From positions 264,334-328,333 of the forward strand of contig JAYRJL010000004.1 of the NCBI GenBank assembly GCA_041906305.1: 64,000 nucleotides of DNA, in the 5' to 3' direction. This document shows, in pieces, positions 1,233-46,849 of this stretch. Under the pieces are notes generated by a model, which saw only the letters and a list, made by a program, of their open reading frames with translations, was not told where the DNA came from and ran no database searches. Each line of letters opens with the position of its first letter. Positions within the stretch are counted from its first letter, which is position 1. A program made the position numbers and the translations under genes. The DNA is from Alphaproteobacteria bacterium. GTDB taxonomy: Bacteria; Pseudomonadota; Alphaproteobacteria; SHVZ01.

Positions 1233-1949
1233 TCAGGCCGGCTTCGGTTCCTGGGCGCGCACCCACTCGCCGTGCTTCTGGCAGCTCGCCTCGGCGAGAT
1301 CGACGAAGACCCCGGCGATGTCCTCGGGCGGCGTCACCGTCAGCGGATCCTCGCCCGGGAAGGCGCCGGCGCGCATCTGGGTGCGGACGGCGCCGGGCGA
1401 GAGCAGGTTCGCCCTGATGTTGGATTTCTCGATCTCCTTGCACCACGTGTAGACGAGGCCTTCCATGCCGGCCTTGGTCGCGGTGTAGGCGCCGAAATAG
1501 GCGGGTATGCCCTTGGTCACGCCCGAGGTGACGAAGATCGCGCGGCCGGCGTCCGAGAGCTTGAGCAGCGGCTCGAAGGTGCGGATCAGGCGCCATTGAG
1601 CCGTCATGTTCAGCATCACGGACTCGTGCCAGTCCTTCGGCGTGATCTGCGCGACGGGCGTGAGCGTGGTGGCGACCGCGGCGTTGGCGACCAGCACGTC
1701 GAGCTTCTTGAAGCGCTCGAAGACCGCCTGGCCCATCTTCTCGATGCCGTCGGGCGACATGAGGTCGAGCGGGATCAGGGTGGCGCTGCCGCCCATCTTC
1801 TTGATCGTGTCGTCGAGCTCCTCGAGCCCGCCCACGGTGCGGGCGGTCGCGATGACATGAGCGCCCTCCCTGGCGAAGCGTTCGGCGACGGCGCGGCCGA
1901 TGCCGCGCGACGCGCCGGTGACGAGCGCGATCCGATCTTTCAGGCGCAT
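1233..1949 (-). CDS. SDR family NAD(P)-dependent oxidoreductase
   Basis: TGASRGIGRA Rossmann motif plus the YxxxK region. I prefer the MRLKDRIALVTG start at 1949 over the 1991 ORF start, because the 1991 start would overlap a strong hairpin (1993-2066). Confidence 0.8.
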   Translation of the reverse strand: MRLKDRIALVTGASRGIGRAVAERFAREGAHVIATARTVGGLEELDDTIKKMGGSATLIPLDLMSPDGIEKMGQAVFERFKKLDVLVANAAVATTLTPVAQITPKDWHESVMLNMTAQWRLIRTFEPLLKLSDAGRAIFVTSGVTKGIPAYFGAYTATKAGMEGLVYTWCKEIEKSNIRANLLSPGAVRTQMRAGAFPGEDPLTVTPPEDIAGVFVDLAEASCQKHGEWVRAQEPKPA

Positions 1950-3561: not shown

Positions 3562-4239
3562 CTACTGGGTGGATCGGATCAGGCCGTCGAGGTCGCGACG
3601 CTGCTCGGCATTATAGCCGGGGCGTGCTTCCTGGGCACCGGGATTCGCCTGCGGCTGGGGGTTGACCAGCCGATCGTAGGTCCGCTTCAGCTCGACCGCC
3701 TGCTCCGCCTTGCGCTTGGCGTCGTCGGCCGCCGCCCGGGTCTGCGATGTGGCCTCGCGCGGCAGCAGGTTCAAGAGCATCTGCGCGCCTGACTCGATCG
3801 CCGGCAACGTCTTGGCGTTGGCGATCCAGTCGGGCCGGTTCTCCTTCGCCACCGCCCAGTTCACGACCAGGAGACCGAGGCAGACGATCACCGCGCCGCG
3901 CGCCAAGCCGAACAGGAAGCCCAGCGAGCGGTCGAGGGCGGAAAGCCCGCTGTCCTGGACCCGCCTGGAAATCGCGCCCGAGATCATGCTGAGGACGATC
4001 AGCGCCACGATGAACAGCGCCGCGCCGGCGGCCGCATCCGCGATCATGTCGACCGAGATGAACTGGCGCGCGATCGGGCGCGCGTACTTGAAGCCGTAGA
4101 GCGCGGCCAGTGCCGCGCCGACCCAGGCGCCGATCGACAGCGCCTCGCGAACGAAGCCGCGGAAGAAGGCGAAGAGGCCGGAGAGCAGGATGATCCCGAT
4201 CACCAGGCCGTCGGTGAAGGTGAAGGCGAGGGCGTTCAT
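3562..4239 (-). CDS. cvpA: colicin V production membrane protein CvpA
   Basis: 225 aa from MNALAFTFTDGLVIGIILLSGLFAFFRGF. Multi-pass membrane protein with a basic hydrophilic tail. Conserved radA-cvpA-purF synteny. Confidence 0.85.
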   Translation of the reverse strand: MNALAFTFTDGLVIGIILLSGLFAFFRGFVREALSIGAWVGAALAALYGFKYARPIARQFISVDMIADAAAGAALFIVALIVLSMISGAISRRVQDSGLSALDRSLGFLFGLARGAVIVCLGLLVVNWAVAKENRPDWIANAKTLPAIESGAQMLLNLLPREATSQTRAAADDAKRKAEQAVELKRTYDRLVNPQPQANPGAQEARPGYNAEQRRDLDGLIRSTQ

Positions 4240-5621
4240 GCGCGCTTCCGTCGCAGGGTCGATTCGCCGTCGAGGCGCTGGACCAGCTCGGCAAGCTGGT
4301 CGATCTCGACCAGCTCCAGCGGGGCGTCGCCGCCTCGCTGCTTCCGGCGCCTGGGCAGGAAGGCTTTGGAGAAGCCCAATTTCGCCGCCTCCTTGAGACG
4401 GGCGTCGGTCTGGCTGACCTGCCGGACCTCGCCCGCGAGCCCGATCTCCCCGAAGACCACCGTGTCGGTCGGAACCGGGGTCTGCGTCAAGGACGAGATG
4501 AGGGCCGCCGCGCAGGCGAGATCGGCCGCCGGCTCGTTCACCTTGAGGCCGCCGGCGACGTTCAGGTCGACGTCGGCGCCGGCGAGGCTGACCCCGCAGC
4601 GGGCATCCAGTACCGCGGTGATCATCGCGAGCCGGCTGGAATCCCAGCCGACCACCTGCCGGCGCGGGGTGGAGAAGGGCGAGGGGGCGACCAGCGCCTG
4701 GACCTCGACCAGCACGGGCCGCGTGCCTTCCATGCCCGCGAATACCGCGGCACCGGAGACATCGCCCCGTCGCTCGGCGAGGAACAGCGCCGACGGGTTC
4801 GAGACCTCCGAAAGGCCGCGATCGGTCATCTCGAAGACGCCGATCTCGTCGGTCGGGCCGAAGCGGTTCTTGACCGCGCGCAGGATGCGGAAGTGGTGTC
4901 CGCGCTCGCCCTCGAAGTAGAGCACGGTATCGACCATGTGCTCGAGCACGCGGGGACCGGCGATCACGCCTTCCTTGGTCACGTGGCCGACGAGGAAGAG
5001 GGCGAAGCCGCGCCTCTTGGCGAGCTTGATCAGCTCCTGTGCCGAAGCGCGCACCTGCGAAACGGTGCCCGGCGCCGAGTCCAATGTGTCGACATACATG
5101 GTCTGGATGGAGTCGATCACGACCACGTCCTTGTGGTCGGCGCCGTCCAGGCTCGCGAGGATGTCGCGCACGGAAGTGGCCGCGGCGAGCGCTACCTGCG
5201 CACCCTCGACCTTGAGGCGCTTGGCGCGGAGCCGCACCTGGTCGATCGATTCTTCGCCGGAGATGTAGATCGTCGAGCCCTTCGTCGCCAGCCGCGCGAC
5301 CACCTGCAGCAGCAGCGTCGACTTGCCGATGCCGGGATCGCCGCCGATCAGGATCGCCGAGCCCGGCACCAGGCCGCCGCCGCACACGCGGTCGAACTCG
5401 GCGATGCCGGTGACCGAGCGCGGTACCTCGGTCGAGGTGCCGGAGAGCTCGACGAAGTCGATCTTGCGCCCGCCCTTGGCCGACTGGCCTTTCGGCGCCA
5501 GCGCCTCGGCGGCTTCCTCGACGATCGTGTTCCAGGCGCCGCAGGACTCGCACCGTCCCGCCCACTTCGCCGTCGAGGCGCCGCAGGACTGGCAGACGTA
5601 GCGGGTTTGCGGTTTCGCCAT
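4236..5621 (-). CDS. radA: DNA repair protein RadA (Sms)
   Basis: N-terminal C4 zinc finger CQSCGASTAKWAGRCESCGAW, Walker A GDPGIGKST, Lon-like C-terminal domain. Overlaps cvpA by 4 nt. Confidence 0.95.
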   Translation of the reverse strand: MAKPQTRYVCQSCGASTAKWAGRCESCGAWNTIVEEAAEALAPKGQSAKGGRKIDFVELSGTSTEVPRSVTGIAEFDRVCGGGLVPGSAILIGGDPGIGKSTLLLQVVARLATKGSTIYISGEESIDQVRLRAKRLKVEGAQVALAAATSVRDILASLDGADHKDVVVIDSIQTMYVDTLDSAPGTVSQVRASAQELIKLAKRRGFALFLVGHVTKEGVIAGPRVLEHMVDTVLYFEGERGHHFRILRAVKNRFGPTDEIGVFEMTDRGLSEVSNPSALFLAERRGDVSGAAVFAGMEGTRPVLVEVQALVAPSPFSTPRRQVVGWDSSRLAMITAVLDARCGVSLAGADVDLNVAGGLKVNEPAADLACAAALISSLTQTPVPTDTVVFGEIGLAGEVRQVSQTDARLKEAAKLGFSKAFLPRRRKQRGGDAPLELVEIDQLAELVQRLDGESTLRRKRA

Positions 5622-5789: not shown

Positions 5790-6563
5790 TCACGGTCGCC
5801 TCACCGCCATCTGGATCGGGCCTTCTGCGCGGCCGTGGATGAACTGGTCGACATAGGCGTTGCCCGAGCGGTCGATCTCCGAGACGGGGCCGGCCCAGAT
5901 GAACCTGCCATTGTAGATCATGGCGATGTGGGTCGCGATCTTCCGCGCGCTGTGCATGTCGTGGGTGATCGAGATCGTCGTGGCGCCGAGCTTCTTCACG
6001 CAGGCGACGATCAGGTCGTTGATCACGTCGGCCATGATCGGATCGAGGCCGGTGGTCGGCTCGTCGAAGAAGATGATCTCGGGCTCGCTGGCGATCGCGC
6101 GGGCCAGCGCCACGCGCTTCTGCATGCCGCCGGAGAGTTCCGACGGGAAGAGCTCGGCGACCGGTGCCGCGAGGCCGACCTGCGCCAGCTTGCCCAGCGC
6201 GATCTCCTTCGCTTCCTTCTTCGCCATGCCCTGGCCCTGGACCAGGCGGAAGGCGACGTTCTCCCAGACGGGCAGGCTGTCGAAGAGGGCCGAGCCCTGG
6301 AACAGCATGCCGATCTTGCTTTGAACCTCCTCGCGATCCTCGCCGCGAGCGCCGACCGTTTCCTCGCCGTCGATTTTGATCGAGCCGGCATCGGGCGTGA
6401 TGATGCCGAGGATGCATTTCAGCAGCACCGACTTGCCCGAGCCTGATCCGCCGATCACGACGAGGCTCTCGCCCGCGGGCAGCGCGTAGTCGATGCCGTC
6501 GAGCACCACCTTCTCGCCGAAGCGCTTCTTCACGCCCTGGAGCTGGATCTTCGGTGTCGTCAT
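5790..6563 (-). CDS. mlaF: ABC transporter ATP-binding protein, MlaF/Ttg2A-like
   Basis: Walker A GGSGSGKS, ABC signature LSGGMQKR, Walker B IIFFDEPT. Paired with the MlaE-like permease. Confidence 0.85.
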   Translation of the reverse strand: MTTPKIQLQGVKKRFGEKVVLDGIDYALPAGESLVVIGGSGSGKSVLLKCILGIITPDAGSIKIDGEETVGARGEDREEVQSKIGMLFQGSALFDSLPVWENVAFRLVQGQGMAKKEAKEIALGKLAQVGLAAPVAELFPSELSGGMQKRVALARAIASEPEIIFFDEPTTGLDPIMADVINDLIVACVKKLGATTISITHDMHSARKIATHIAMIYNGRFIWAGPVSEIDRSGNAYVDQFIHGRAEGPIQMAVRRP

Positions 6564-7333
6564 TTGGCGAAGAACAGCTCGGTGATGATGTAGTTGAAGA
6601 TCAGGATCAGGATCGAGGCGGAAACGACGGCGTTGGTCGTGGCCTGGCCGACGCCCTGGGCGCCGCCCTTCGAGTTGTAGCCGTGGTAGCAGCCGGTCAG
6701 CGCCACCAGGAAGCCGAAGGCCGAGGCCTTCACCAGGCCCGAGACCACGTCGATCATCTCGAGGTAGTCCCAGGTACGGCGAAGATAGGCCGCGGCGTTG
6801 AAGTCGAGCTTGTAGACGCTGACCAGGTAGCCGCCGAAGACGCCGAGGATGTCGCCGATCAGCACCAGAAGCGGCAGCATCGTGGCGCCGGCGATCAGCC
6901 TTGGCACCACGAGGTACTTGTAGGGATCGGTCGAGAGCACGGTGAGCGCGTCGATCTGATCGGTCACGCGCATCGTGCCGATCTCGGCCGCCATCGCCGC
7001 GCCGATGCGGCCCGCGACCATCAGGCCCGCCAGCACCGGCGCCAGCTCGCGCGTCATCGACAGCACGACGACGGTTGCGACCGCGCCCTCGGCCGAGAAG
7101 CGCGCGAAGCCGGTGTAGCTCTGCAGCGCCAGCACCATGCCGGAGAACAAGGTGGTCAGCGCCACGACCGGCAGCGAGAAGTAGCCGATCTCGATCATCT
7201 GCCAGCCGATGAGGCGGGGGTAGAAGGGCGGGCGGAACATGTGCCCGACCGCGACCGCCGCGAACATCGACAGGCGCCCGATCGCGGCCAGCGCGTCGAG
7301 GAAGGCGCGGCCGATGGCGGCGAGGAGGCCCAT
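6560..7333 (-). CDS. mlaE: ABC transporter permease, MlaE-like
   Basis: 257 aa from MGLLAAIGRA (ATG 7333). Hydrophobic multi-pass protein of the MlaE family. The 600-aa ORF in the track is a readthrough composite. 4-nt overlap with mlaF. Confidence 0.85.
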   Translation of the reverse strand: MGLLAAIGRAFLDALAAIGRLSMFAAVAVGHMFRPPFYPRLIGWQMIEIGYFSLPVVALTTLFSGMVLALQSYTGFARFSAEGAVATVVVLSMTRELAPVLAGLMVAGRIGAAMAAEIGTMRVTDQIDALTVLSTDPYKYLVVPRLIAGATMLPLLVLIGDILGVFGGYLVSVYKLDFNAAAYLRRTWDYLEMIDVVSGLVKASAFGFLVALTGCYHGYNSKGGAQGVGQATTNAVVSASILILIFNYIITELFFAK

Positions 7334-8433
7334 CAGGCGGCCGATCCGACGTAGCGTCGCGCGTAGCGGCGGGAGAGTCCGGTCAGCATCTGGTATCCGT
7401 TGGTGCCGGCGAGGCGTCCGAGCTCGTCCGGCGGCAGCTCTTCGCCCATCAGCACGACCGGCGTTCCGGGTCGGGATGCCTCTTCGGGCAGGTCGGTCAC
7501 GTCGAAGGTCACCAGATCCATCGAGACGCGGCCTACCAGGGGGATCGGACGGCCGGCAATATATCCGCGGCCCCGGTTGGTGAGCGAGCGCAAATAGCCG
7601 TCGGCATAGCCCACGCCGACGGTGGCGATCCGGGTCGACCGATTCGCACGCCATTGCGCGTTGTAGCCGACCGACCTTCCGTCGGCGATCGTTCGCACGG
7701 TCAGGATCTCGGCCTCCAGCCTCACCGTCGTCTTCATCGGATTCGGCGCGTTCTCGACCGGCGCCAGGCCGTAGAGCGCGGCACCCGGGCGGACCATGTC
7801 GAAGTGATACGCGGGACCCAGGAAGATTCCCGCGGAGTTGGCGAGACTCGCCTTGGCCTTGGGCAGCTTCGCCAGGGCGCCGCGGAATCGGCCGAGCTGC
7901 AGCGGGTTGTCCGGGTCGGCCTGCACCTCGCCCGAGACCAGGTGGCTCATGATCCAGGCGATCTCGACGCTCTCGAGGCGGCCTGCTTCGGCCGCGAGCG
8001 TCTCCACCTCGGGCTCGGACAGCCCGAGCCGGCTCATGCCGGTATCGACGTGGATCACGGTGCGGCCGCCGCCGTTCTTCGTCCACGTCGCAAGCTGGTC
8101 GAGCGAATTGATGACGGGAGTCAGCCGGTGCTGCCGGAACTCGCCTTCGCTTCCCGGGCGCGGGCCTTCGAGCACGCCGATCTCGCGGTCGATGGCGGCG
8201 CGGAGCCGGATGCCTTCGTCGAGCGTGGCCACGAAGAAGACCCTGGCACCGGCGCGGGCGAGGGCAGGGCCGACGAACTCGGCGCCGAGGCCGTAGGCGT
8301 CGGCCTTCACCATCGCCGCGCAGTCGGCATGCGGGGCGGCGCGCGCCGCCAGCAGCCGCCAATTGGCGACGACGGCGTCGAGGTCGACGGTCAGCCGCGC
8401 GCCGGCATTCGCCGGGATGTCAGCCGATCTCAT
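7333..8433 (-). CDS. alr: alanine racemase
   Basis: PLP lysine in the AMVKADAYGLG motif near the N-terminus; overall alanine racemase fold length of 366 aa. Confidence 0.9.
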   Translation of the reverse strand: MRSADIPANAGARLTVDLDAVVANWRLLAARAAPHADCAAMVKADAYGLGAEFVGPALARAGARVFFVATLDEGIRLRAAIDREIGVLEGPRPGSEGEFRQHRLTPVINSLDQLATWTKNGGGRTVIHVDTGMSRLGLSEPEVETLAAEAGRLESVEIAWIMSHLVSGEVQADPDNPLQLGRFRGALAKLPKAKASLANSAGIFLGPAYHFDMVRPGAALYGLAPVENAPNPMKTTVRLEAEILTVRTIADGRSVGYNAQWRANRSTRIATVGVGYADGYLRSLTNRGRGYIAGRPIPLVGRVSMDLVTFDVTDLPEEASRPGTPVVLMGEELPPDELGRLAGTNGYQMLTGLSRRYARRYVGSAA

Positions 8434-9931
8434 TGGGGAGATGGTCGGCGGCGGCGTAGTTGGAGAACTTGGTCGTCGGCCCGTCGAACTGGAGCTTCAC
8501 CGTTCCGGTCGGTCCGTGACGCTGCTTGCCGATGATCACCTCGGCGAGGCCGTAGACCTGCTCGCAGCGTTCCTTCCACTGGTCGTAGCGGTCGTGGAAC
8601 TTCTCGTCGCTCTCTTCCGGCCGGCGCGTCGGCTCGGCGCGGGCGAGGTAGTACTCCTCGCGGAAGATGAACATGACCACGTCGGCATCCTGCTCGATCG
8701 ATCCGGACTCGCGGAGGTCGGAGAGCTGCGGGCGCTTGTCCTCGCGCTGCTCGACCGCGCGAGAAAGCTGCGAGCAGGCGAGCACCGGGATGTCGAGTTC
8801 CTTGGCGATCGCCTTCAGCGAGCGCGTGATGTCGGAGACTTCCTGCACGCGATTTTCCATCTTGCTGCCCGCAGATGCCCGCAGAAGCTGGAGGTAGTCG
8901 ACGACCAGCAGGTTGAGACCGTGCTGACGCTTCAGGCGTCGTGCGCGGGTGCGCACCGCGGTCACGGTCAGCGCCGGGGTGTCGTCGATGAAGATCGGCG
9001 CACGTTCGAGACGCTGGCTCGCCTGCACCAGGCGGCGGAAGTCGTGCTCGGTCAGTTCGCCGCGACGGATCTTCTCGCTCGGTACTTCGATCTGCTCCGC
9101 AAGCAAGCGGGTGGCGAGCTGCTCGGCCGACATTTCGAGCGAGAAGAACGCGACGACGAAGCGTTCGGCGTCGGGATTGTCGACCGACTGCACGGCCGCA
9201 TTGAAGGCGATGTTGCAGGCGAGGCCGGTCTTGCCCATGCCGGGGCGCGCGGCCAGCACCAGAAGGTCCGAAGGATGGAGGCCGCCCAGCATGCGATCCA
9301 TCTCGAGCAGGCCCGTCGGCACGCCGGTCAGCTTGCCTTCGCGCTTGTAGGCCTTCTCGGCCATCTCGATCGAGCCGGCCATCGCCTGGGCGAAGCTGCG
9401 GAAGCCGCTTTCGGCCGCATCGCTTTCGGCGAGATTGAACAGCTTCGACTCGGCGACCTCGATCTGGTCCTTGGCCGAGGTCTCGAGCTCGTGCTTGTGC
9501 GCCTCGTTGACCATCTCCTCGCCGACGTCGATGAGCTGGCGGCGGAGGAAGAGGTCGTGGACGGTGCGGCCGTAGTCCTCGGCGTTGACGATGGCGACGA
9601 CGGAGGCGGCGAGCTTGACCAGATACTGCGCGCCGCCGACCTCGGCGAGCGCGCCGTCCTGATCGAACAGCGCCTTCAGCGTCACCGGATTGGCGATCTG
9701 CCCGCGTTCGATCAGCTTGCCGATCGCCGCGTAGATGCGGCCGTGCGCCGGGTCGGCGAAGTGCTCGGCGCGGAGGAAGTCGCCGACGCGCTCGTAGGCG
9801 GCGTTGTTGACCAAGAGCGCGCCGAGCAGCCCTTGCTCGGCTTCGTAGTTGTGCGGCGGGGTGCGGTAGCCCGATGTGGCGGGCTCCTTGCGCTGTTCCG
9901 GCCACACCGAGGGAAGCTTCAGTTCGGTCAT
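8420..9931 (-). CDS. dnaB: replicative DNA helicase DnaB
   Basis: 503 aa; DnaB N-terminal domain plus RecA-like domain with Walker A ARPGMGKT. Confidence 0.95.
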   Translation of the reverse strand: MTELKLPSVWPEQRKEPATSGYRTPPHNYEAEQGLLGALLVNNAAYERVGDFLRAEHFADPAHGRIYAAIGKLIERGQIANPVTLKALFDQDGALAEVGGAQYLVKLAASVVAIVNAEDYGRTVHDLFLRRQLIDVGEEMVNEAHKHELETSAKDQIEVAESKLFNLAESDAAESGFRSFAQAMAGSIEMAEKAYKREGKLTGVPTGLLEMDRMLGGLHPSDLLVLAARPGMGKTGLACNIAFNAAVQSVDNPDAERFVVAFFSLEMSAEQLATRLLAEQIEVPSEKIRRGELTEHDFRRLVQASQRLERAPIFIDDTPALTVTAVRTRARRLKRQHGLNLLVVDYLQLLRASAGSKMENRVQEVSDITRSLKAIAKELDIPVLACSQLSRAVEQREDKRPQLSDLRESGSIEQDADVVMFIFREEYYLARAEPTRRPEESDEKFHDRYDQWKERCEQVYGLAEVIIGKQRHGPTGTVKLQFDGPTTKFSNYAAADHLPNEIG

Positions 9932-12924: not shown

Positions 12925-13860
12925 ATGTTTCCGCTTCTCGAAATCGTCCTGCCGATCTTCGCCGTCGTCCTCGTCGGCTGGCTGGTCGGCCGCTTCGACA
13001 TCATCAAGGCCGAGCGGGTCAACGGGCTCGCCGACTTCACCTTCTTCATCGCGATCCCGGCGCTGATGTTCCGCTCGGTGGTCCGCAACATCCGCTGGGA
13101 GACCGCCGATCCCGGCGTGCTGATCGCCTATTTCGGCTCCGGCCTCGTGATCTACGCGATCGCTCTCCTCATCGGTCTCCGCGTCTTCAAGATCACGTTC
13201 GAGGAAGCGGCGGTGCTGGGGCTCGCCTGCACCTTCGGCAATTCGGTCCAGCTCGGGATTCCCATGGTGGTCCGCACCTTCGGCGAGCACGGGCTCGTGC
13301 CGCTGATGCTGATCATCAGCTTCCACTCGCTCGTGCTGATCGGGCTCACCACGGTGCTGATCGAGATCGCGCGCGGGCGCGGCGGCGGCGCCAGGGTGGC
13401 GGCGATCCAGTCGGCGAAGGGCGCCGCCAGGAATCCGATCATCATCGCGATGGTCGCCGGCCTGGCGACTGCCGGCTTCGACGTCGAGCTGCCGAAGATG
13501 GTGGACGACTTCCTGGGCCTGCTGGGCGCCGCCGGCATTCCATGCGCGCTGTTCGCGCTCGGTGCCCAGATCTCCCGGTTCAGGTTCGGCGGCTCGCTCG
13601 GTCCCACCGTGGCGATCCTCGTCCTGAAGCTGGCGGCGCTGCCGGCGATCGTCTGGCTCTTCGGGATCTGGCTTGGTCTTTCCGGCGAGACGGCGGCGGT
13701 GGCGATCCTCGCTTCCGGCCTTCCCACCGGCGCCAACGTCTTCATCCTCGCCAACCGATATCTCGTTTACCAGGCGCCGGTGGTGTCCTCTGTCGTCGCC
13801 TCGACCGCGCTCTCGCTCGTCACGATCACGCTGCTGATCGCCTGGCTGGCGCCGGTCTAG
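12925..13860 (+). CDS. AEC (auxin efflux carrier) family transporter
   Basis: 311-aa, 10-TMS hydrophobic protein with the two-halves AEC architecture. Confidence 0.85.
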   Translation: MFPLLEIVLPIFAVVLVGWLVGRFDIIKAERVNGLADFTFFIAIPALMFRSVVRNIRWETADPGVLIAYFGSGLVIYAIALLIGLRVFKITFEEAAVLGLACTFGNSVQLGIPMVVRTFGEHGLVPLMLIISFHSLVLIGLTTVLIEIARGRGGGARVAAIQSAKGAARNPIIIAMVAGLATAGFDVELPKMVDDFLGLLGAAGIPCALFALGAQISRFRFGGSLGPTVAILVLKLAALPAIVWLFGIWLGLSGETAAVAILASGLPTGANVFILANRYLVYQAPVVSSVVASTALSLVTITLLIAWLAPV

Positions 13861-16517
13861 AAGGCGAAGCGGGAAATCGGGACCTCCCGGCCCGAGGGCA
13901 GGACCAGCGTGGCGGTCCGGAAACCTGTCGCGCGGAGCGTGACGCCGCCGCGCTCCGCCAGCAGCCGCGGTCCCCCAGCGCCGAAAGCGTATTCCTGCAA
14001 GGTCCCCTGGAAGAGCCCTCTCGCGTAGGTCCCGCTCGCGACGTACCAGGCGGAACTGCCGTCGTCTCGATAGAGATGCGTGGACATGAGCAGCACCCCG
14101 TTCCGGATCTCGATGAAGTAGCCGGATCCCGGCTCGGCCGCGTTCCACCACCAGCCCGTCTCGGGCTCCAGCAATTCTTCATAGGCGCCCGTGACGTCGA
14201 GCCGCGCATGGAGTCGTGCCGTTCGCGGATCGACAACCGGGACACCCGACGAGGCGATCGCCCTCTCCAGGGACGCGACGTGCGTCGGCCCGGCGGTCTT
14301 GAGAGCCGCGATCGCCCCGGCGACGTGCGGCGCCGCCATCGACGTGCCGCGCAAGGCCTCGAAGCCGCCGCCGGGCATCGAGGAGACGATGCCGTCGCCC
14401 GGGGCCACGATCATCGGCAGGCGCCACGCGTTCGAGAAGGCGGCGAGCACATCGAGAGCGGTGGTTGCGCCGACGCGGATCGCGCTGGAAACGCAGGCCG
14501 GCACGGCGACGGCGTTGGTTTGCTTCCCATTGCCGGCGGCGACGACCGACGCCACGCCGATTGCCCGAAGCTGATCGAAGATCGGCTTGTACGGCGTGTC
14601 GTCGCAGTAGCCCGCGTAGGCGTCGCCGCCGAGGCTCAGGTTGACGGCGACGACGTTGAGCCGCTGCGCGTTGTCGCGGACGTATTCGAGACCCCTGATG
14701 ATGTCGGAGTCGGTCGCGCCGATGCAGGGGCCGAGGCAATAGAGCATGGGGTAGTGCCGGAAGACCTGAACGCTCATCAGGCTCGCTTCGGGAGCGACGC
14801 CCGAGAAAGCCTCGCCCCTTCCAGCGACGATGCCCGCGACATGCGTACCGTGATAGCAGGTGGCCTCCGCATCGGCGCAGGGTCTGCCGGCGCCGCGGCC
14901 GAACATCGCGTCGGCGCCGTTCGGGCAGGCCGTCATGATTCCGTGGCTGCGGATCGAGGTGCTGAAGCACGCCTCATCGATCACGCGCCCGCCGAGAAAG
15001 GGATGCGTCGCGTCGATGCCCGTATCCAGCACCGCGACGGTCTGGCCTGCGCCCGTATGTCCCCTGGACCAGACATAGGGCGCCCGTATCCTCGGAACGG
15101 AAGCCGCAAGTAAGGTGGACCGTCTGGCATCCTCATGCACTGCCGCGACCGAGGGATCGGCGAGAAGCGCCTCGAGCCCGGCCGGCGTGACGTCGGCGAC
15201 GACCAGCGGGAGACTTCCGAAGGCGGACACGATCGCGCTTCCCGCTGCGGAGAGCGACGAAGCAAGCCGACCACCGTCCGATGCGGTTCCGTGGAGCCTG
15301 ACGATGACCCGCTGGCTTCCTTTCGACAGGACGAGATCCTTGAGCTCCCTCAACCTGACCGCTTCGGCCTTGATGGGGGCGGGCAGGGTGCCGGGGTCGT
15401 CGGAAGATGCGCTGCCACCGACTGGGTATCGCTCGATGGCAAGAGTTTTCCCACCGGACCGCGCCAGCGTGCCGCGAGCCGACGACGCGAAGGCGAGGGA
15501 GATCGTTCCGGCGGAATCGCGTTCGGCGGGCGGCTTCGAGCCGCCTGCATATTCCGTCAGGGTCGTCGTGAGACCGAAGCCGTCCCAGGAGCCGGACCCC
15601 AGGTACCAGACGGCGCTGCCGTCGGCGCGATAGTCGTAGGCGGCGATCATCAGCCGGTCGTCGCGGAGTTCGATCGAATAGGCGCGGCCGGGCTCGCTCG
15701 GCGCCCACCACCAGCCGCTTTCCGGATCGGCGGACGGCGGCATGAATCGCGCCGTGCAGGCGACATCTCCGCCGATGACGATCCTCGCCTCTGCCGTGCG
15801 ACCGCTCGCGCTGCAGGCGCCGCCCCATCCGGCGAAGACCCATCCGGTTCCAGGGACTGCGCGCAGCGGCACCGACGCGTCCTGGTAGACCTCGATCGTG
15901 CACGTGCCGGAGGCGCAGCGCGGGCCATTGCGGCCCAAGATGACCTCGCCGGCGCCGATGCCCGCGAGCGTCATGGTCAGGCGGCGCTTGATCAGCACCG
16001 GTTCGTGAGCCGGCACCTGGACCGTCCGGGGCGTCAGCTGCAGCTGGCCATGAGTGAGGCTGAAGGCGCCGTTCGGATCGAAGCCGGACTGGAATGCGCC
16101 GAAGTCGAAGGCGACCGTCACCGGCTCATGGACGTTGCCGCAGATCCGGCTGCCGGCGGCATCGACGACCTGCTCGACGATGTAGACCCTGTTGTTCTGG
16201 CGGACAGCCCAGCCGCCGCAGACGCGGGCGCCGATAGTCTTCGTCGGGATCATCCGTATCATGAGCACCGAGCGGCTGGGATCTTCGGCGCACGGCACGC
16301 GCCAGAGAACCGCATCGGATTCGGAGGGGGAGAGGCTCTGTTCGGAAAACCTGGCTGACGGGGCCGGGGGCGGCGCCGGAAATCGCTCGGGCAGACAGCC
16401 GGCAAGGTAAGCCGATGCGTTCGGAAGGCTCGGTTCGGCCCACGCGCCCGCGGGAACCAACTTCGCCAGGGTCAGGGCGATCGCCGCCAGCCAAACCGAC
16501 CGGAATCCAGGGCGCAT
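13857..16517 (-). CDS. secreted S8 family serine peptidase (subtilase) with InlB-B-repeat-like N-domain and two flanking 'GWWW' repeat domains
   Basis: Signal peptide MRPGFRSVWLAAIALTLAKLVPAGAWA (ATG 16517; the track start at 16577 is TTG). Catalytic triad motifs VLDTGID, HGTHVAG, GTSMAAPHVAG. Two ~100-aa repeats ESGWWWAPSEPGRAYSIE... (nt ~15414-15725) and ETGWWWNAAEPGSGYFIE... (nt 13860-14168). Confidence 0.85.
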   Translation of the reverse strand: MRPGFRSVWLAAIALTLAKLVPAGAWAEPSLPNASAYLAGCLPERFPAPPPAPSARFSEQSLSPSESDAVLWRVPCAEDPSRSVLMIRMIPTKTIGARVCGGWAVRQNNRVYIVEQVVDAAGSRICGNVHEPVTVAFDFGAFQSGFDPNGAFSLTHGQLQLTPRTVQVPAHEPVLIKRRLTMTLAGIGAGEVILGRNGPRCASGTCTIEVYQDASVPLRAVPGTGWVFAGWGGACSASGRTAEARIVIGGDVACTARFMPPSADPESGWWWAPSEPGRAYSIELRDDRLMIAAYDYRADGSAVWYLGSGSWDGFGLTTTLTEYAGGSKPPAERDSAGTISLAFASSARGTLARSGGKTLAIERYPVGGSASSDDPGTLPAPIKAEAVRLRELKDLVLSKGSQRVIVRLHGTASDGGRLASSLSAAGSAIVSAFGSLPLVVADVTPAGLEALLADPSVAAVHEDARRSTLLAASVPRIRAPYVWSRGHTGAGQTVAVLDTGIDATHPFLGGRVIDEACFSTSIRSHGIMTACPNGADAMFGRGAGRPCADAEATCYHGTHVAGIVAGRGEAFSGVAPEASLMSVQVFRHYPMLYCLGPCIGATDSDIIRGLEYVRDNAQRLNVVAVNLSLGGDAYAGYCDDTPYKPIFDQLRAIGVASVVAAGNGKQTNAVAVPACVSSAIRVGATTALDVLAAFSNAWRLPMIVAPGDGIVSSMPGGGFEALRGTSMAAPHVAGAIAALKTAGPTHVASLERAIASSGVPVVDPRTARLHARLDVTGAYEELLEPETGWWWNAAEPGSGYFIEIRNGVLLMSTHLYRDDGSSAWYVASGTYARGLFQGTLQEYAFGAGGPRLLAERGGVTLRATGFRTATLVLPSGREVPISRFAF

Positions 16518-16684
16518 GATGAGGACCGGATGATGAGAGAGATTCGGAACAATAAGAGAACAAACGCAACCTTTCAAATAATGATACGACTATCATACTA
16601 TTTTCCTGTGGGATGCGGGCTGGCTCGCCTTGACTCCCCCGGTCGCCGTGCCATGACTCCGGCCCTTTTCAAGCGGGGATCTGC

Positions 16685-40580: not shown

Positions 40581-40946
40581 ATGCCTAAGACCGTCATGAT
40601 CGTCGAAGACAATGAGCTCAACATGAAGCTCTTCAACGATCTGCTCGAGGCCAACGGCTACAATATCATTCAAACGCGCGATGGGCTGGAGGCTCTGAAG
40701 CTCGCCCGCCAGCACAAGCCCGACCTGATCCTGATGGACATCCAGCTGCCCGAGGTCTCCGGCCTGGAAGTCACCAAGTGGATCAAGGAAGACGACAACC
40801 TCAAATCCATCCCGATCATCGCGGTCACCGCCTTCGCGATGAAAGGCGACGAGGAGAAGATCCGCGAAGGCGGATGCGAGGCCTACATCGCCAAGCCGAT
40901 CTCCGTCGCGACATTCCTGCAGACGGTCCAGCGCTTCCTCCAGTAG
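40581..40946 (+). CDS. divK: single-domain response regulator DivK
   Basis: 121-aa stand-alone receiver ([18 protein letters not shown] ... [10 protein letters not shown]), immediately followed by pleD. Confidence 0.85.
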
Positions 40947-40955
40947 GGCCGCGAC

Positions 40956-42413
40956 ATGCCCGGCCGCATCCTGGTCGTCGACGACATTCCGGCGAACGTC
41001 CGGTTGCTGGAGGCCAAGCTCGCCAGCGAATACTTCGACGTCATCACCGCCTCTTCCGGACCGCAGGCGATCGAGGTCGCGCGCGCCGAGGCGCCGGACA
41101 TCGTGCTGCTCGACGTGATGATGCCGGGGATGGACGGCTTCGAGGTCTGCCGCCACCTCAAGGCCGACCCGCAGACGACCCACATCCCCGTGGTGATGGT
41201 CACGGCGCTCTCCGACGTCTCCGACCGGGTGAGGGGACTCGAGGCCGGCGCCGACGACTTCCTGACCAAGCCGGTGCGCGACGTGGCGCTGTTCGCGCGC
41301 GTCCGCTCGCTGATCCGCCTCAAGATGGTCATGGACGAGTGGCGGCTGCGCCAGCAGACGTCCAGCGAGCTCGGCATCGTTCCGCCGACCGCGACGCCGG
41401 AGCACGAGAGCTATCACCACGCCCGCATCCTGATCTGCGAGGCGAGCGCGATCGAGACCGCCAATCTCCAGGAAGTGCTGGCGCGCGACGGGCACGAGTT
41501 GCAGGTCGCGGCGACGATCCCGGAGAGCCAGAAGCTGGCGGGCGGGAGCGAGTTCGATCTCGTGATCGTCGACCTGGCGCTCGGCGACGACGAGGCGCTG
41601 CGTCTCTGCTCGCATCTCCGCGCCCAGGAGAAGACGCGCCAGACGCCGATCCTGCTGATCGCGGAAGAGGACCAGACCGCCAAGCTGGCGAAGAGCCTGG
41701 ACCTCGGCGTCAACGACTACCTGATGCAGCCGGTCGACCGGAACGAGCTGCTGGCGCGCGTGCGGACCCAGATCCGCCGCCGGCGCTTCCAGGACCGGCT
41801 CCGTACGTCGTACCAGCAGAGCCTGTCGATGGCGCTGACCGACCAGCTGACCGGGCTCTACAACCGCAACTACCTGATGACCCACCTGTCGGGGCTGATG
41901 CAGCGGACGATCGCGTCCGGCAAGGCGCTGGCCCTGGCGATGATCGACGTCGACACCTTCAAGCAGGTGAACGACACCCACGGGCACGCCGCCGGCGACG
42001 AGGTGCTGGCCGAGCTCGCCCAGCGCATGACGCATTTCACGCGCAACTTCGACACCGTCGCCCGCTTCGGCGGCGAGGAGTTCGTCGTGGTCATGCCGGA
42101 CATCACGCCGGAGCTGGCGATGCTGGTCGCCGAGCGCCTTCGGCTCAGGGTGGCCGACTCGCCGATGAAGCTGAAGAACGGTCTGTCGCTGCCGATCACG
42201 ATCTCGATCGGCGTCGCGGTCTCACGCAACCAGGGCGACCGGGCGGAGGATCTGCTGAGCCGCGCCGACCAGGCGCTCTATGCCGCCAAGCACCAGGGGC
42301 GCAACCGCGTGGTGCTCGCAAACGACGACGCCGGGGCTGTGACCCCGGCGGCGGAAATCGTCGGCCTCAAGGAGAGGGCCGAAAAGCTGGACGCGAGAGC
42401 GGAGCCTATTTGA
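40956..42413 (+). CDS. pleD: response regulator PleD (REC-REC-GGDEF diguanylate cyclase)
   Basis: Two receiver domains plus a GGEEF active-site motif ([11 protein letters not shown]). Confidence 0.9.
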
Positions 42414-42573
42414 TCTTGGCTTCGCGGAAGGTCACGTGCTTCCGCGTGACCGGATCGTACTTCCGCATTTCCATCTTCTCCGTGGTCTTCCGCGGATTCT
42501 TGCTGGTCACGTAGTAGAAACCGGTGTTCTCGCTCGACACGAGTTTGATGGTGATGGTGCTCGGCTTGGCCAT
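42406..42573 (-). CDS. rpmG: 50S ribosomal protein L33
   Basis: Reverse complement translates to [55 protein letters not shown] (55 aa). Absent from the ORF track, presumably because of its length cutoff. Overlaps the pleD stop by 8 nt, convergent. Confidence 0.9.
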
Positions 42574-42637
42574 GGCGCGCTCGCAGGCTTGAAAGGTCGG
42601 GGAGAGATAGAGGCCGGAGAGAGCCCCGTCAAGCGGC

Positions 42638-43201
42638 TCAGGCCCGGATGTCGACGACGCTTCTGCCAGACGGGGTCGGCGTTCCGCCGGAGGCCGAGGC
42701 GCCGCCGCCCCGGATCTTGGCCTCGAGGTCGGCCAGCGCCCGTTCGGTCTGGCGGATGTCGGCCTCCGCCTGGCGCTTGATCGAGGGGTCGCTCGGCTGG
42801 CCGTAGGGCTGGACCAGTGCCACCTGGGCCCGGACCAGCGCCAGCTTCAGCTGCTTGTAGAGGTTCTGGGCCTGCTCGCCGGAAACGGCGGGCGGCAGCG
42901 GCTGCTGGCCTTCCGGCGTCTTGGTCGTCTGGCCCTGGTCGAGGCCGGAATGGATGCTGTTGGCGAGAAGGCGCGTCTCGCGCGCGACCCGCTGGGCGGC
43001 GCGGACATCCCCGGTGGCGGCGGCGCTGCCGGCGGCGACCAGCAGGCCGGGCAGCTTGATCTTGGCGCTGTCCACGGCCTCCTTTGCGGACAGACCCTGA
43101 GGCGTCGCGCGCCCGGCGGCGGCAACGGCCTTCAAGGTATCCAGCGTCTTCGCCTGGGTCTCCGTCAGGACGGGACCGAGGCTCGGGGGCACGGTGACCA
43201 T
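42638..43201 (-). CDS. hypothetical Ala-rich protein, paralog A of a tandem pair
   Basis: 187 aa, MVTVPPS... ...SVVDIRA. GAGGAG Shine-Dalgarno. Shares an N-terminal MVT-P, a central KLxxLxxAAGxAxATGD and a C-terminal DV-A with the adjacent gene. Confidence 0.6.
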
Positions 43202-43271
43202 TGCTCCTCTCTAGATCCGCCCGAAGGTAGAAGAGCCCATGGGCGGGCGCAAATCTGTGATCGCGCTCACG

Positions 43272-43895
43272 TCACGCATCCACGTCGATCATATGCCCGG
43301 CCGGCTGGGCGGACAGGGAGCCCGAGAGCGACTGGAGTTCCTTCTCGCCGTCGCGCAACGCCCTTTCGACTTCCTTGATCTCGTCGGGCGAGGCACCGCG
43401 GATCCGCGCCGCGACAACCGCGAGCCTCAGCTTGTCGACGACCTTCTTCAGTTCCTTCACCAGCTCCTTGCCGCCTTCGCGCGCCTGATCCAGATCGGTG
43501 CCGGATCGCTCGGTCGGCTGGGGTTTATCGCCAGGCTGAGCCGAGGCGTCCTTGAGGAGACCCGCGTCCTTGAGCGCCTGGGTCAGTTCCTTGGTCAGGG
43601 CGCGGACCTCGCGGATCGCCGAGCGCGCGAACCCCAGGTCGCCGGTCGCCGACGCGGCACCGGCCGCGAGCTTGATCGCCTCCAGCTTGCTGCGGAGAAA
43701 GTCGACCTTCGCGGCGGCCGCCTTCTTCGGCGCCTCCTTCATCTCGGCGTGGACATTGTCGAGCGTGGCGAGCGCATCGGCCTGCGCGCGCGTCGGCACC
43801 GGCCGATGCTTCAAGCGGTCGAGCGCGAGGGCGGCGACGGAAGACGTCGCAAAATCGGTCGGGGTACTTAAGGCGGGTCCGGGAAGGGTGACCAT
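43272..43895 (-). CDS. hypothetical Ala/Lys-rich protein, paralog B of a tandem pair
   Basis: 207 aa, MVTLPGP... ...HMIDVDA. Clear block similarity to paralog A. Confidence 0.6.
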   Translation of the reverse strand: MVTLPGPALSTPTDFATSSVAALALDRLKHRPVPTRAQADALATLDNVHAEMKEAPKKAAAAKVDFLRSKLEAIKLAAGAASATGDLGFARSAIREVRALTKELTQALKDAGLLKDASAQPGDKPQPTERSGTDLDQAREGGKELVKELKKVVDKLRLAVVAARIRGASPDEIKEVERALRDGEKELQSLSGSLSAQPAGHMIDVDA

Positions 43896-44009
43896 TTTGG
43901 TCCTCCAGCCGAATCGAAGAGCCGCTTTTGGCTCCTACATATGCGTAAGGATAAACATCCGGCGAGCCTTGCGCAAGGGGCTCGCCGGATATTTGTTTAA
44001 AGTCCAGGG

Positions 44010-45569
44010 TTAAGGCGTGAGCGCGACCTGTCCCTGGCGCGAGGCGAGGGCAAAAAGGCCACTCTCCTCAAGCAGTTGCTGGGCGACGCGCACCTCGAAA
44101 TCGGACTCGGCCGACTTCGTCGGGCAGGCCTTGCGGGCCGCCTCGGCTCCTGCGACTTCGCCCTGCCGGATGAAGGTGGCGCGCTGGGCATAGGCCTGGC
44201 CGATCTCCGGCGCATTTCGGCGCAGGTCGGCGATCAGCGCAGCAGGATCGCCGGCATGGTGGCTGGTGCAGACGCTCGGCAGCACGCCGATCTTGTGCCA
44301 GGCCTGACCCGAGGGGCCCTGCATCCGCGCCCAGGTGATGGTCATCTCGCCGTCGTTCGGCAGGCGCATGACCGTCTGGACGCTGCCCTTGCCGTAGGAG
44401 GTCGAGCCGATCACCACCGCACGGTGGTTGTCCTGCAGCGCCGCCGCGACGATCTCGGCCGCGGAAGCGGATCCGCCGTTGATCAGGACGACCATCGGCA
44501 GGCCATGGGTGATGTCGCCGTCGGTCGCGCGATAGCTCTGCTTCGCCCGCGGATGGCGGCCCTCGGTCGCGAGAATGGTTCCCTCGTTGAGGAAGAGGTC
44601 GGAGACGTAGACCGCCTGGTCGAGAAGCCCGCCGGGATTTCCGCGCAGGTCCAGGATCAGCCCCTTGAGGCCGGGGCCGTGGTTCTTCATCGCGGTATCG
44701 ACGGCTTCCTCGACCTGCTTGGCCGTCCGCTGATTGAACCCGGTGACACGGATATGGGCCGCTCCGCCCTCGTGCTTGACCAGGACGGTCGCGGGCACGA
44801 TGCGCGAGCGCTTGAGCGCCATGTCGAACTGCTTGCCGTCCCGTTCGATCACCAGCTTGATGGTCGAGTCGATCGGGCCGCGCAGCTTGTCCAGTACGTC
44901 CGGCGACGGCATGCCGGACAGCGTGGCGCCGTCGGCCGCGACGATGCGGTCGCCGTCGCGAAGGCCGGCGCGGGAGGCCGGGGTCTCCGGCATGACCGAG
45001 GAGACGGCGACGCCGGTCTCGTCGATCTTGAGGGTCACGCCGATGCCGCCGAAGCCCTCGCGGCTGGCCCGGGACTGGCGCGCCGCATCGGCCGAGGAGT
45101 AGCGCGAGAACGCGTCGAGGTCGGCGAGCTCGGCCTCGAACACCGCTTTGTAAATCGCCTCCGAGGAGGCGTCCTTGAGCGGCGCGAAATGGAGGCGGCT
45201 CTCGGCCACGACGTCGGAGGTGAAGCGGGCCCAGCGGTTCGGGTCGTCCCCGGTCGGGAGCGCGATCGGCCGGGTGTCCGTCTTGCCGTAGGTCAGCCGG
45301 ATCTGGCGGTCGTCGGCGGAGAAGGCGAAGGCGGGGTCGAGGGTCTTCAGACCGTTCAGCCCATGCAGGGCCAGCTTCCGCATGTCGACGCGGTCGATGT
45401 AGTAGTCGGACAGACCGTCATATCCGACGCCGAAGACGTCGCGGGCACGGTCGAGGCCGGCGTTCTGGGGAACCTGATCGGACGAGGAGGCGCAGCCGGC
45501 GCTGAGGAGGAGGGCGAGCACGGTGCCGGCGCGGCCGGCGCTTTGAAGGCGGTGCGTAGTCAGTTTCAT
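44010..45569 (-). CDS. ctpA: S41 family C-terminal processing peptidase (CtpA/Prc-like) lipoprotein
   Basis: Lipobox LLSAGCAS, a PDZ domain (GIGVTLKIDETGVAVSSVMPETPASRAGLRDGDRIVA), and the catalytic Ser/Lys region (GGSASAAE ... K). Start MKLTTHRLQ at 45569. Confidence 0.85.
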   Translation of the reverse strand: MKLTTHRLQSAGRAGTVLALLLSAGCASSSDQVPQNAGLDRARDVFGVGYDGLSDYYIDRVDMRKLALHGLNGLKTLDPAFAFSADDRQIRLTYGKTDTRPIALPTGDDPNRWARFTSDVVAESRLHFAPLKDASSEAIYKAVFEAELADLDAFSRYSSADAARQSRASREGFGGIGVTLKIDETGVAVSSVMPETPASRAGLRDGDRIVAADGATLSGMPSPDVLDKLRGPIDSTIKLVIERDGKQFDMALKRSRIVPATVLVKHEGGAAHIRVTGFNQRTAKQVEEAVDTAMKNHGPGLKGLILDLRGNPGGLLDQAVYVSDLFLNEGTILATEGRHPRAKQSYRATDGDITHGLPMVVLINGGSASAAEIVAAALQDNHRAVVIGSTSYGKGSVQTVMRLPNDGEMTITWARMQGPSGQAWHKIGVLPSVCTSHHAGDPAALIADLRRNAPEIGQAYAQRATFIRQGEVAGAEAARKACPTKSAESDFEVRVAQQLLEESGLFALASRQGQVALTP

Positions 45570-45711: not shown

Positions 45712-46278
45712 ATGCCTGACCTCCCGAGCATTGCCGAATTGCGCGAGCGAGTCGCGAGCGCGGTATTGGGGGAAGTTCTGACCTACTGGTCGAGCTTCTA
45801 TGATCGCGGCGTGCTTCCCGCCTTCGACGACGTCGAACCGTGGCAGATCAAGAAGGCCCTTCCTTATGTCTGGATCTGGCGGCGGGAGGTCGAGGCGGAC
45901 CGTTTTTTCTGCCGGGTCTGCGGGGAGCATGTGAACTACATCTTCGGCCGCAATCTCTCCGGCAAGTCCTGCGAGGAGGCGATGCCGTCTGAGATGGCGG
46001 CCGAGGCACAGGCGCGCTGGCGGCGCCTGATCGACGACCGGCTGGCCCATCACCTGACCGGCTGCGTCTACAGCTACGTCGGTCAGCGCGTGATGGGCGA
46101 GCGCCTGATCCTGCCTCTGGCCCCCTCGAGGAACGATCGTGGCGGCGTGCTGGGCGTGACGGACGCCTCCCAGCCGACGCTCCGCCTCGACTCGCCGGTC
46201 GACCCGTCGAAGTTCATCGGCATCGGGGCCGGCGAGCGACACGACTACGACGCCGATCCGGCCCGCGCCAATGACTGA
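45712..46278 (+). CDS. PAS_5 (PF07310-like) alphaproteobacterial PAS-fold protein, paralog 1
   Basis: 188 aa; motif YW..F...GVLPAFDDVEPWQIKKALPYVWIW ... DRFFCRVCGEHVN. Confidence 0.6.
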   Translation: MPDLPSIAELRERVASAVLGEVLTYWSSFYDRGVLPAFDDVEPWQIKKALPYVWIWRREVEADRFFCRVCGEHVNYIFGRNLSGKSCEEAMPSEMAAEAQARWRRLIDDRLAHHLTGCVYSYVGQRVMGERLILPLAPSRNDRGGVLGVTDASQPTLRLDSPVDPSKFIGIGAGERHDYDADPARAND

Positions 46279-46849
46279 GAAGCTTCCCTCGGTCGCGGAG
46301 ATCGCCGGCGGCATACGCAGCCCGGCCGTCCGCGCCGTCTATGACTTCTGGATGTCCTTCTGGACCAGAGGTGTTCTCCCGTCTTTCGACGACGTCGATC
46401 CGGGTGCGATCAGGGAGGCGTTGCCTTACCTCTGGGTGATCAAGTACGAGCGGGCGGACGACCGTTTCAGCTATCGCATAGTCGGCGAAGAGGTGAACCG
46501 CTTCTTTCGCCGCAACATGTCTGGCGCGCAGGTCGATGCGATGCCCGTCGACCTCGCCGACGTCTTCAAAGGACGGTGCCGTCGCGTGGCCGAGAACCGC
46601 CAGGCGCTGCACCTGGTGGGCAAGATCTATCGGCTGGTCGGCTACGACGCCTTCGGCGAGAGGATGTACCTGCCGCTCGCGCCCTCGCGCAGCGACGACG
46701 GCGGCGTCCTCGGCGTCACCGACGCACGCGGGCATTTCGTCGACGAGAAGATCCTCCAGGACACCGGTGGCAACATCGTCGCTATCCGCGACGGCTCTTA
46801 CCAGGTCTACGACGCGGCGCCCCGGAGCGAGTCTCAGGGCGGCGCTTGA
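46271..46849 (+). CDS. PAS_5 (PF07310-like) protein, paralog 2, translationally coupled to paralog 1
   Basis: 192 aa. ATGACTGA overlap with the upstream paralog. Same motif set (FW.SFWTRGVLPSFDDVDPGAIREALPYLWVI ... DRFSYRIVGEEVN). Confidence 0.6.
   Translation: MTEKLPSVAEIAGGIRSPAVRAVYDFWMSFWTRGVLPSFDDVDPGAIREALPYLWVIKYERADDRFSYRIVGEEVNRFFRRNMSGAQVDAMPVDLADVFKGRCRRVAENRQALHLVGKIYRLVGYDAFGERMYLPLAPSRSDDGGVLGVTDARGHFVDEKILQDTGGNIVAIRDGSYQVYDAAPRSESQGGA

Follow-up and report, generated by a model that had tools for sequence, protein, structure and literature searches.

What are the two small genes that lie in tandem between the gene for an S41 C-terminal processing protease and rpmG in Alphaproteobacteria bacterium contig JAYRJL010000004.1, and does their position beside a tail-specific protease say anything about what their products do? 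We addressed this question in a window of 64,000 nucleotides (nt), by which we mean the whole stretch of DNA that was analyzed (positions 264,334 to 328,333 of the contig; window coordinates below count from its first letter). Both open reading frames (ORFs) are on the minus strand. The upstream one, here called long, occupies 43272 to 43895 and encodes 207 amino acids (aa), and the downstream one, here called short, occupies 42638 to 43201 and encodes 187 aa; these coordinates include the stop codons, and a gap of 70 nt separates the ORFs. A first-pass annotation, made from the sequence alone, had described the pair as a tandem duplication and had speculated that its members are substrates or regulators of the adjacent protease. 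Our analysis shows that long and short are functional paralogs from an undescribed and narrowly distributed protein family whose first gene carries a conserved 5' leader, and it disfavors the link to the protease.

Coding status, paralogy, and family range

Judged by codon composition and by comparison with relatives, both ORFs are genuine, functional coding genes. The G+C content at third codon positions (GC3) is 0.91 in short and 0.85 in long, versus 0.86 to 0.94 in the S41, rpmG, pleD, and rnr genes (genome, ~68% G+C). This signature is confined to the claimed frames. Overlapping ORFs in alternative frames lack it, as in 43239 to 43871 on the plus strand, where GC3 is 0.72 and the corresponding value for first codon positions is 0.84. 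Between orthologs from related contigs, the ratio of nonsynonymous to synonymous substitution rates (dN/dS) ranged from 0.19 to 0.56, with dS of 0.6 to 1.0, and was below 1 in all 21 pairs; the paralogs are therefore under purifying selection, though they evolve quickly. Specifically, protein identity between contigs is 49 to 67% for long and 66 to 85% for short, versus 83 to 87% for RNase R, 86 to 94% for PleD, and 95 to 100% for DivK. The ORF listing shows that each gene starts at the first possible start codon past an in-frame stop, so an N-terminal extension is impossible. Conservation among relatives, which the first-pass annotation had proposed as a check, was also evident: start codon, stop codon, and Shine-Dalgarno sequence are kept across ~90 sequences, with full-length conservation and in-frame indels.

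Could the ORFs nevertheless be nonfunctional, either left open by chance at high G+C content or pseudogenes in decay? Long spurious ORFs are common in high-GC genomes, and the region of the pair is itself overlapped by several; short is frameshifted in one relative, and dN/dS is fairly high. When set against the frame-restricted GC3, the uniformly low dN/dS ratios, and the fixed gene boundaries, this explanation is hardly credible, and we consider it effectively refuted. The frameshifted copy belongs to a Lake Baikal metagenome-assembled genome (MAG) at locus L004, positions 8773 to 9299, equivalent to L010, 6773 to 7299 (related loci are identified here by L numbers). Short is split there over two frames (residues 1 to 69 and 72 to 187), which reflects either a pseudogene or an assembly error, and the gene caller instead calls a 151-aa ORF on the opposite strand.

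The claim that the two ORFs are homologous held up well. BLASTP with composition adjustment aligned long and short over essentially their full length (E = 4e-11, 30% identity), and their Smith-Waterman score of 160 far exceeded the scores from 2,000 shuffles (41 ± 7.5, maximum 83; z = 15.8), so the ORFs do align better than random Ala-rich sequence. All four of the blocks that had been quoted as shared were found, namely, the MVT.P start, a central block, a C-terminal helical block, and the xDxxA tail. The similarity thus reflects true paralogy and not an artifact of Ala richness.

The family that long and short represent is undescribed, fast evolving, and confined to Ferrovibrio and related freshwater Alphaproteobacteria. 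At 90% identity, the matches from word-indexed searches fell into 23 clusters for long and 14 for short, and no cluster had a Pfam domain or a name that informs on function. A broader word-indexed profile search brought up solely proteins of 180 to 275 aa from this same family. An exhaustive search with a joint profile of both paralogs recovered only 30 proteins at E ≤ 0.001 among 1.84 billion representatives. The named sources of relatives were Ferrovibrio spp. and unclassified freshwater alphaproteobacterial MAGs (Lake Baikal and an offshore lake sample). NCBI places Ferrovibrio in the order Rhodospirillales, and an assignment to the Hyphomicrobiales, in which the pair had been expected, is not supported.

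Searches of libraries of known families agreed with the earlier statement that the proteins are unrecognizable. In Pfam, short had no match and the best match of long (E = 0.014) was far below the cutoff; the best NCBIfam value was 0.055. Scans of 28 family members against both libraries gave no consistent match and none above the cutoff, and PADLOC and PHROG scans gave no significant match. A sequence profile search of the PDB found only designed coiled-coil peptides (E > 0.03), and fold searches found only generic helical-bundle matches. By fold, the closest known structures are generic up-down helical-hairpin bundles, such as syntaxin Habc, the STAT coiled-coil domain, PhoU, BAG domains, and designed helical repeats. 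In short, no described family or system fits by sequence, and the predicted fold is uninformative.

Two specific candidates were rejected. Three of the 28 members, all of the Ferrovibrio type, match positions ~535 to 722 of Pfam DUF4175, which stands, like TIGR02302, for long alphaproteobacterial membrane proteins with low-complexity regions. The best of these matches (E = 6.4e-6, 24.9 bits) is below the gathering cutoff of 27.3, and the resemblance is probably compositional. Unlike DUF4175 proteins, the family members lack transmembrane helices and are ~200 rather than ~850 aa long, and the window proteins do not match the profile at all. None of the 28 members matched TIGR02302, no DUF4175 protein was found elsewhere in the window, and the literature on DUF4175 yielded only an unrelated mention of Acinetobacter AdvA. 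A CheZ-like phosphatase was considered because of divK; neither the catalytic D-x-x-x-Q on a long helical hairpin nor a match to the CheZ profile was present.

Ferrovibrio genomes carry a tandem pair of their own (P0075 and P0085). A neighbor-joining tree, although weakly resolved, places long and short together, apart from every Ferrovibrio subtype. It thereby favors independent duplications over the idea, which we rejected, that long and short are an ancestral heterodimer pair orthologous to the Ferrovibrio pair. Tandem duplication seems to have recurred independently in the family, with copies also being lost. P0075 is labeled "valyl-tRNA synthetase" by JGI, an evident misannotation.

Protein anatomy and the leader of the first gene

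Long and short were modeled with AlphaFold2 (long, predicted local distance difference test score of 76 and predicted template modeling score of 0.60; short, 82 and 0.70). Helices are predicted in long at residues 14 to 29, 36 to 84, 87 to 110, 134 to 165, and 170 to 195, with a disordered Pro-rich linker at 111 to 133 and a disordered C-terminal tail that ends in MIDVDA. The helices of short are predicted at residues 14 to 31, 39 to 63, 66 to 92, 108 to 130, and 139 to 166, followed by a disordered tail that ends in VVDIRA. Both models follow a common plan of a disordered N-terminal peptide, a short helix, two helical hairpins, and a disordered C-terminal tail. The first, long hairpin turns at the signature motif of the family, and a variable Pro/Ala-rich linker, the site of most indels in the family, connects the two hairpins.

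The termini are the most regular features among 88 full-length members, which range in size from ~170 to 275 aa across the family. The N-terminal motif is M-V-[TASN]-x-[IPTV]-[GAP], with Val in 79 members. The C-terminal motif is [VIL]-[DN]-[LVIF]-polar-[AVT]-COOH, whose specified positions hold in 81, 82, 82, and 84 members, respectively, or roughly 90% overall, and the conservation of the tails was thus borne out. Such a tail is compatible with recognition by PDZ domains or Tsp, both in the residue at position -3 counted from the end (L, V, I, or F in 82) and in the last residue (A, V, or T in 84). The median isoelectric point (pI) of the family is 9.7, and its members contain hardly any Cys or Trp. 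No member has a transmembrane segment or a signal-like N terminus (maximum Kyte-Doolittle 19-residue mean, 1.39), as had been predicted for the pair. The further description of the proteins as helical and of low complexity was correct in its first part and only partly so in its second: Ala makes up 17 to 18% of residues, and most of each chain is predicted with confidence to be helical. As modeled, then, the family consists of soluble, mostly basic proteins that probably fold as helical bundles.

The first family gene is preceded by a leader common to the window and to L001, L003 to L006, L009, L011, L012, L014 to L017, L020, L023, L025, and L027. Its most constant part is an inverted repeat at the start site of long (43886 to 43906, minus strand; GACCA-AAA-TGGTC with outer GG/CC), the core of which is invariant and extends to the Ferrovibrio loci. 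Folded as a hairpin, it would pair the AUG and the next two codons, the first of which encodes Val, with the 3' portion of the Shine-Dalgarno sequence GGAGG. The consensus is G(A/G)CCA-(G/A)AA-TGGT(C/T), and an outer GG that pairs with CC of the third codon often lengthens the stem; folding free energies lie between -6.2 and -10.5 kcal/mol (z of about -1.8 to -2.9). This element of 13 to 17 nt is kept between Ferrovibrio and the clade of loci that includes the window (the window clade), between which the proteins are only 25 to 30% identical. It occurs once in the window; short lacks it, as do the second genes of tandem pairs generally. None of the five core pairs is broken in any of 14 sequences, and the substitutions seen affect just one side of a pair (A-U to G-U and G-C to G-U). 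RNAalifold recovered only this hairpin, and none of the 14 sequences has compensatory changes.

The element probably accounts for part of the conservation of M-V-[TAS], through the codons GUC and NCC. Val-2 is also kept with other codons, namely, GUA in L018, where the hairpin is absent, and GUU in L005, whose final U can still form a wobble pair, and there is therefore a protein-level constraint too.

Upstream of the start site, past the putative -10 element of the promoter described below, lies a 5' untranslated region (UTR) stem-loop (43918 to 43935, minus strand; GGAGCC-AAAAGC-GGCTCT) with equivalents in relatives. The stem varies by locus (GAGCC, GGGGACC, GGGCT, GGAGGC, GGGTC, GGGGC, CCGGC, or TTGCC), and the loop usually contains GAA, although the window's own loop is AAAAGC and that of L004 is ACTT. 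Because the loops differ in length, MAFFT aligns these hairpins out of register, and tabulating them by hand is circular by construction. They were therefore scored with a shuffle test for hairpin presence: 11 of 14 leaders contain a GAA-loop hairpin with a stem of 4 bp or more, against an expectation of 1.7 and no more than 6 in any of 1,000 shuffles. The upstream hairpin of L001 nearly copies its start-site hairpin. A GGATC(G/T)G sequence is also conserved in the leader, only within the window clade.

The leader resembles those known to occlude the Shine-Dalgarno sequence and AUG (ROSE and fourU thermometers and CsrA-type multihairpin leaders) in its 5' stem-loop, its hairpin over the start site, and its recurring loops. 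It differs from them in that the loops carry GAA rather than GGA, the start-site hairpin is short, and there is neither a U-rich anti-Shine-Dalgarno sequence nor a ROSE-type bulged G. Rfam models, including ROSE and other thermometers, had no match at gathering thresholds anywhere in the window.

The adjacent protease and possible roles

The S41 gene lies directly upstream of long (44010 to 45569, minus strand) and was identified by family match; its product has a PDZ domain and a lipoprotein signal (MKLTT...LLLSAGC, with lipobox LLSAGC). The gene order in the window clade is topA, rnr, usually two PAS_5 genes, S41, the family gene or genes, rpmG, pleD, divK, a ROK-family gene, and dinB, and the step from S41 to the family gene is kept throughout the clade. 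This constancy favors the proposal that the paralogs are substrates, inhibitors, or adaptors of the protease whose tails are bound by its PDZ domain, as does the resemblance of the tail to a class II PDZ ligand (hydrophobic-x-small-COOH), at least as judged by sequence. Tsp/Prc prefers a small uncharged last residue, which fits the last residue of the family, and the upstream neighbor in Ferrovibrio is likewise an envelope lipoprotein. The paralogs resemble known substrates of Prc/Tsp (ssrA-type tails) and the helical lipoprotein adaptors NlpI and LbcA of Prc/CtpA in the location of their genes beside one for an S41/PDZ protease, in their helical make-up, and in a conserved C-terminal peptide whose last residue is small and apolar. 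Unlike them, the paralogs lack a signal peptide, a lipobox, and tetratricopeptide repeats, and their penultimate residue is polar.

Other evidence argues against such a partnership. The lipobox is conserved in S41 orthologs as LLALLL[SGA][AG]GC, and the protease is therefore periplasmic, whereas the paralogs, which lack signals for Sec, Tat, or lipoprotein export and cannot start farther upstream, appear to have no Sec, Tat, or Lol route to that compartment. The first family gene has a promoter-like element of its own (below). Copy content varies as well: the window, L001, L009/L021, and L027 have both paralogs; L004/L010 has long with the frameshifted short; L003, L011, L020, and L025 have long alone; and L005 has short alone. 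Either paralog is therefore dispensable while the protease stays. The association with S41 is also limited to one sublineage and broken in both directions. Family members without a nearby S41 gene occur in L006 and L012 to L019. In Ferrovibrio-type loci, the context is a divergent pdxH, a 17-kDa-antigen/glycine-zipper lipoprotein gene, one or two tandem family genes, and then a DUF3237 or PAS histidine kinase gene; S41, rpmG, and pleD were not found within 6 to 8 kb of the family genes. A divergent short-like member in L019 lies between a flavin mononucleotide dehydrogenase gene and creA, again with no S41 gene within 6 to 8 kb. Conversely, L030, a lower-GC relative, has an S41 ortholog (52% identity) by rpmG with a GGDEF gene and no family member in the slot; the interval between S41 and rpmG is therefore a variable insertion site. 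To the question, raised in the first-pass annotation, of whether the pair always accompanies ctpA or rpmG, the answer is thus negative, and by this comparison the family seems to have no constant gene neighbor. We consider a role as partner of the protease improbable and disfavor the link; the adjacency looks accidental.

We noted two further features of these slots. Among Ferrovibrio-type genomes, different family subtypes occupy the same position directly after the lipoprotein gene (L017, 7001 to 8438, equivalent to L018, 6226 to 7663; also L006, L012, and L014). The gene in the L030 slot (754 to 1785, plus strand) is a 343-aa ORF with GGDEF-type motifs (GGEEF).

What, then, might the proteins do? 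From their anatomy, we tentatively propose that they would be small cytoplasmic proteins that scaffold interactions or serve as adaptors, with the helical bundle as the body and the C-terminal [VIL]-[DN]-[LVIF]-x-[AVT]-COOH peptide as a docking or turnover signal that a partner or protease may bind as an added β-strand. Long and short would be partly redundant. The first family gene, here long, would form its own transcription unit, possibly as would short, and output of the first gene would be set at translation, with the last leader hairpin hiding the Shine-Dalgarno sequence and AUG. The pair itself would have been inserted, in this lineage specifically, between S41 and rpmG, at a site of variable content in the topA-rnr...rpmG-pleD-divK backbone, with no functional coupling to its neighbors. 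Taken as a whole, this package is somewhat more apt to be wrong in some part than right throughout.

A number of observations weigh against the scaffold proposal. The idea of an adaptor with a docking peptide draws on anatomy and not on a partner identified by homology, and the polar penultimate residue of the C-terminal motif is unlike classical ClpX (LAA) tags. A basic pI and a structured UTR would suit a nucleic-acid-binding role equally. All three contexts include an envelope-protein neighbor (the S41 lipoprotein, the 17-kDa-antigen lipoprotein, and CreA), the first two immediately upstream, which could hint at an envelope role outside a cytoplasmic model. The terminator-like hairpin after S41 has a weak T-tract, so read-through from S41 into the family genes is possible. 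Finally, the start-site core never varies, and an element that acts as an RNA hairpin is therefore indistinguishable from one that acts as a DNA operator or through its primary sequence.

Two other roles would place the same features in a different light. The proteins could form a phasin-like coat on polyhydroxyalkanoate (PHA) granules, or scaffold polyphosphate or another condensate, as abundant amphipathic helical proteins. They resemble phasins in size and in their Ala-rich, all-helical make-up, and they have a strong GGAGG Shine-Dalgarno sequence; tandem paralogs, fast evolution, and narrow distribution with poor conservation between lineages, all seen here, are typical of phasins. We nonetheless regard this role as unlikely, given that none of the 28 members matched Phasin, Phasin_2, PhaP_Bmeg, or PHA_gran_rgn even at E ≤ 1, that the conserved extreme N- and C-terminal peptides and the signature turn are not phasin features, and that no PHA or polyphosphate genes occur in any neighborhood examined. 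Alternatively, the proteins could bind nucleic acid and regulate their own translation through the GAA-loop hairpins, in the manner of ribosomal-protein or CsrA-type feedback. Their basic pI would suit this, as would the two to three hairpins with similar loops (AGAA, TGAAT, and CCA-GAA-TGG over the AUG) that are kept between lineages despite the divergence of the proteins, and the near-copy of the start-site hairpin in L001. Pfam and NCBIfam scans, however, detected no RNA-binding domain, the upstream loops of the window and L004 depart from the pattern, and second tandem genes lack the start-site hairpin. Moreover, the 5' hairpins fit mRNA stabilization as well, and the start-site element fits translational damping or a thermometer. 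Autoregulation is accordingly quite unlikely in our view, and its fuller form, in which new small basic RNA-binding regulators bind GAA-loop hairpins, feed back on their own and possibly other mRNAs, and use the C-terminal peptide for turnover or docking, is a long shot.

The family couples a lineage-specific helical protein with conserved end-peptides and a conserved translational leader. If it has a defined role, it would be a new building block for poorly studied freshwater and iron-cycling Alphaproteobacteria, and because Ferrovibrio species are cultivable, it is open to experiment, with the end-peptides and leader as concrete handles. As it stands, it is one among many uncharacterized lineage-restricted families, novel only in the weak sense that nothing described fits it. 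The practical value of the present analysis is mainly negative: a position by a tail-specific protease and divK-pleD should not be taken as a functional link.

Transcription units and neighboring genes

Promoters were assigned solely by consensus matches and conservation. The putative sigma-70-type promoter of long lies at 43948 to 43976 on the minus strand, with TTGCGC (43976 to 43971), a 17-nt spacer, and TATCCT (43953 to 43948); every locus of the window clade has a TTGCG-N17-TAnCCT element ~80 nt ahead of its first family gene. Short has a promoter-like element in the spacer that separates it from long (43224 to 43252, minus strand; TTGCGC, 17 nt, TACCTT). The spacer between short and rpmG holds another (42604 to 42632, minus strand; TTGACG-N17-TATCTC), in which CTTGAC and CTCTAT are invariant in seven loci. 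Because rpmG has this invariant element, an operon of the family genes with rpmG was rejected as the main interpretation. Just after the S41 stop codon is the 14-bp G+C-rich hairpin noted above (43957 to 43990, minus strand), which is terminator-like with a weak T-tract on this strand and overlaps the -35 region of the putative promoter of long; most loci have a G+C-rich hairpin at this position. The simplest reading of these predicted elements is that S41, the family genes, and rpmG are separate transcription units.

The perfect palindrome GCCCATGGGC to which the first-pass annotation had drawn attention is indeed present in the 70-nt spacer, at 43235 to 43244, where it falls in the spacer of the promoter-like element of short. 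It carries no evident meaning: it is not conserved in orthologous spacers, and the window holds 155 perfect 10-nt palindromes, so that ~0.17 would be expected per 70 nt. A role as operator or terminator was ruled out on both grounds.

The neighbors that had been named for the pair were all confirmed at their positions. rpmG (42406 to 42573, minus strand) follows short, and divK and pleD (40581 to 42413, plus strand) lie past it. The topA-rnr...rpmG-pleD-divK backbone is widely conserved in Alphaproteobacteria, as in rhizobial and Caulobacter gene orders, and the adjacency of rpmG, pleD, and divK reflects this backbone, not an operon. The 3' ends of rpmG and pleD overlap convergently by 8 nt (42406 to 42413), and the junction is equally tight in related loci. 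A scan for terminator-like sites found none between these two genes; the lone site that it listed here falls inside the rpmG coding sequence.

A second tandem paralog pair, divergent from S41, encodes PAS_5 proteins (45712 to 46278 and 46271 to 46849, both on the plus strand; Pfam E = 6.5e-12 and 1.8e-7). These proteins have a weak similarity, far below the NCBIfam cutoff, to the Caulobacter motility and cell-cycle regulator MopJ. The pair is present in most related loci, is absent from L004 and L005, and as called overlaps the 3' end of rnr. Elsewhere in the window, the longest ORFs, over-long ones at 13860 to 16577, 3565 to 5565, and 6563 to 8362 (all on the minus strand), include among them a subtilase (Peptidase_S8), a CvpA/colicin V production domain, and an MlaE permease domain. 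The domains fill only the C-terminal part of these high-GC ORFs, and the true starts are therefore probably well downstream.

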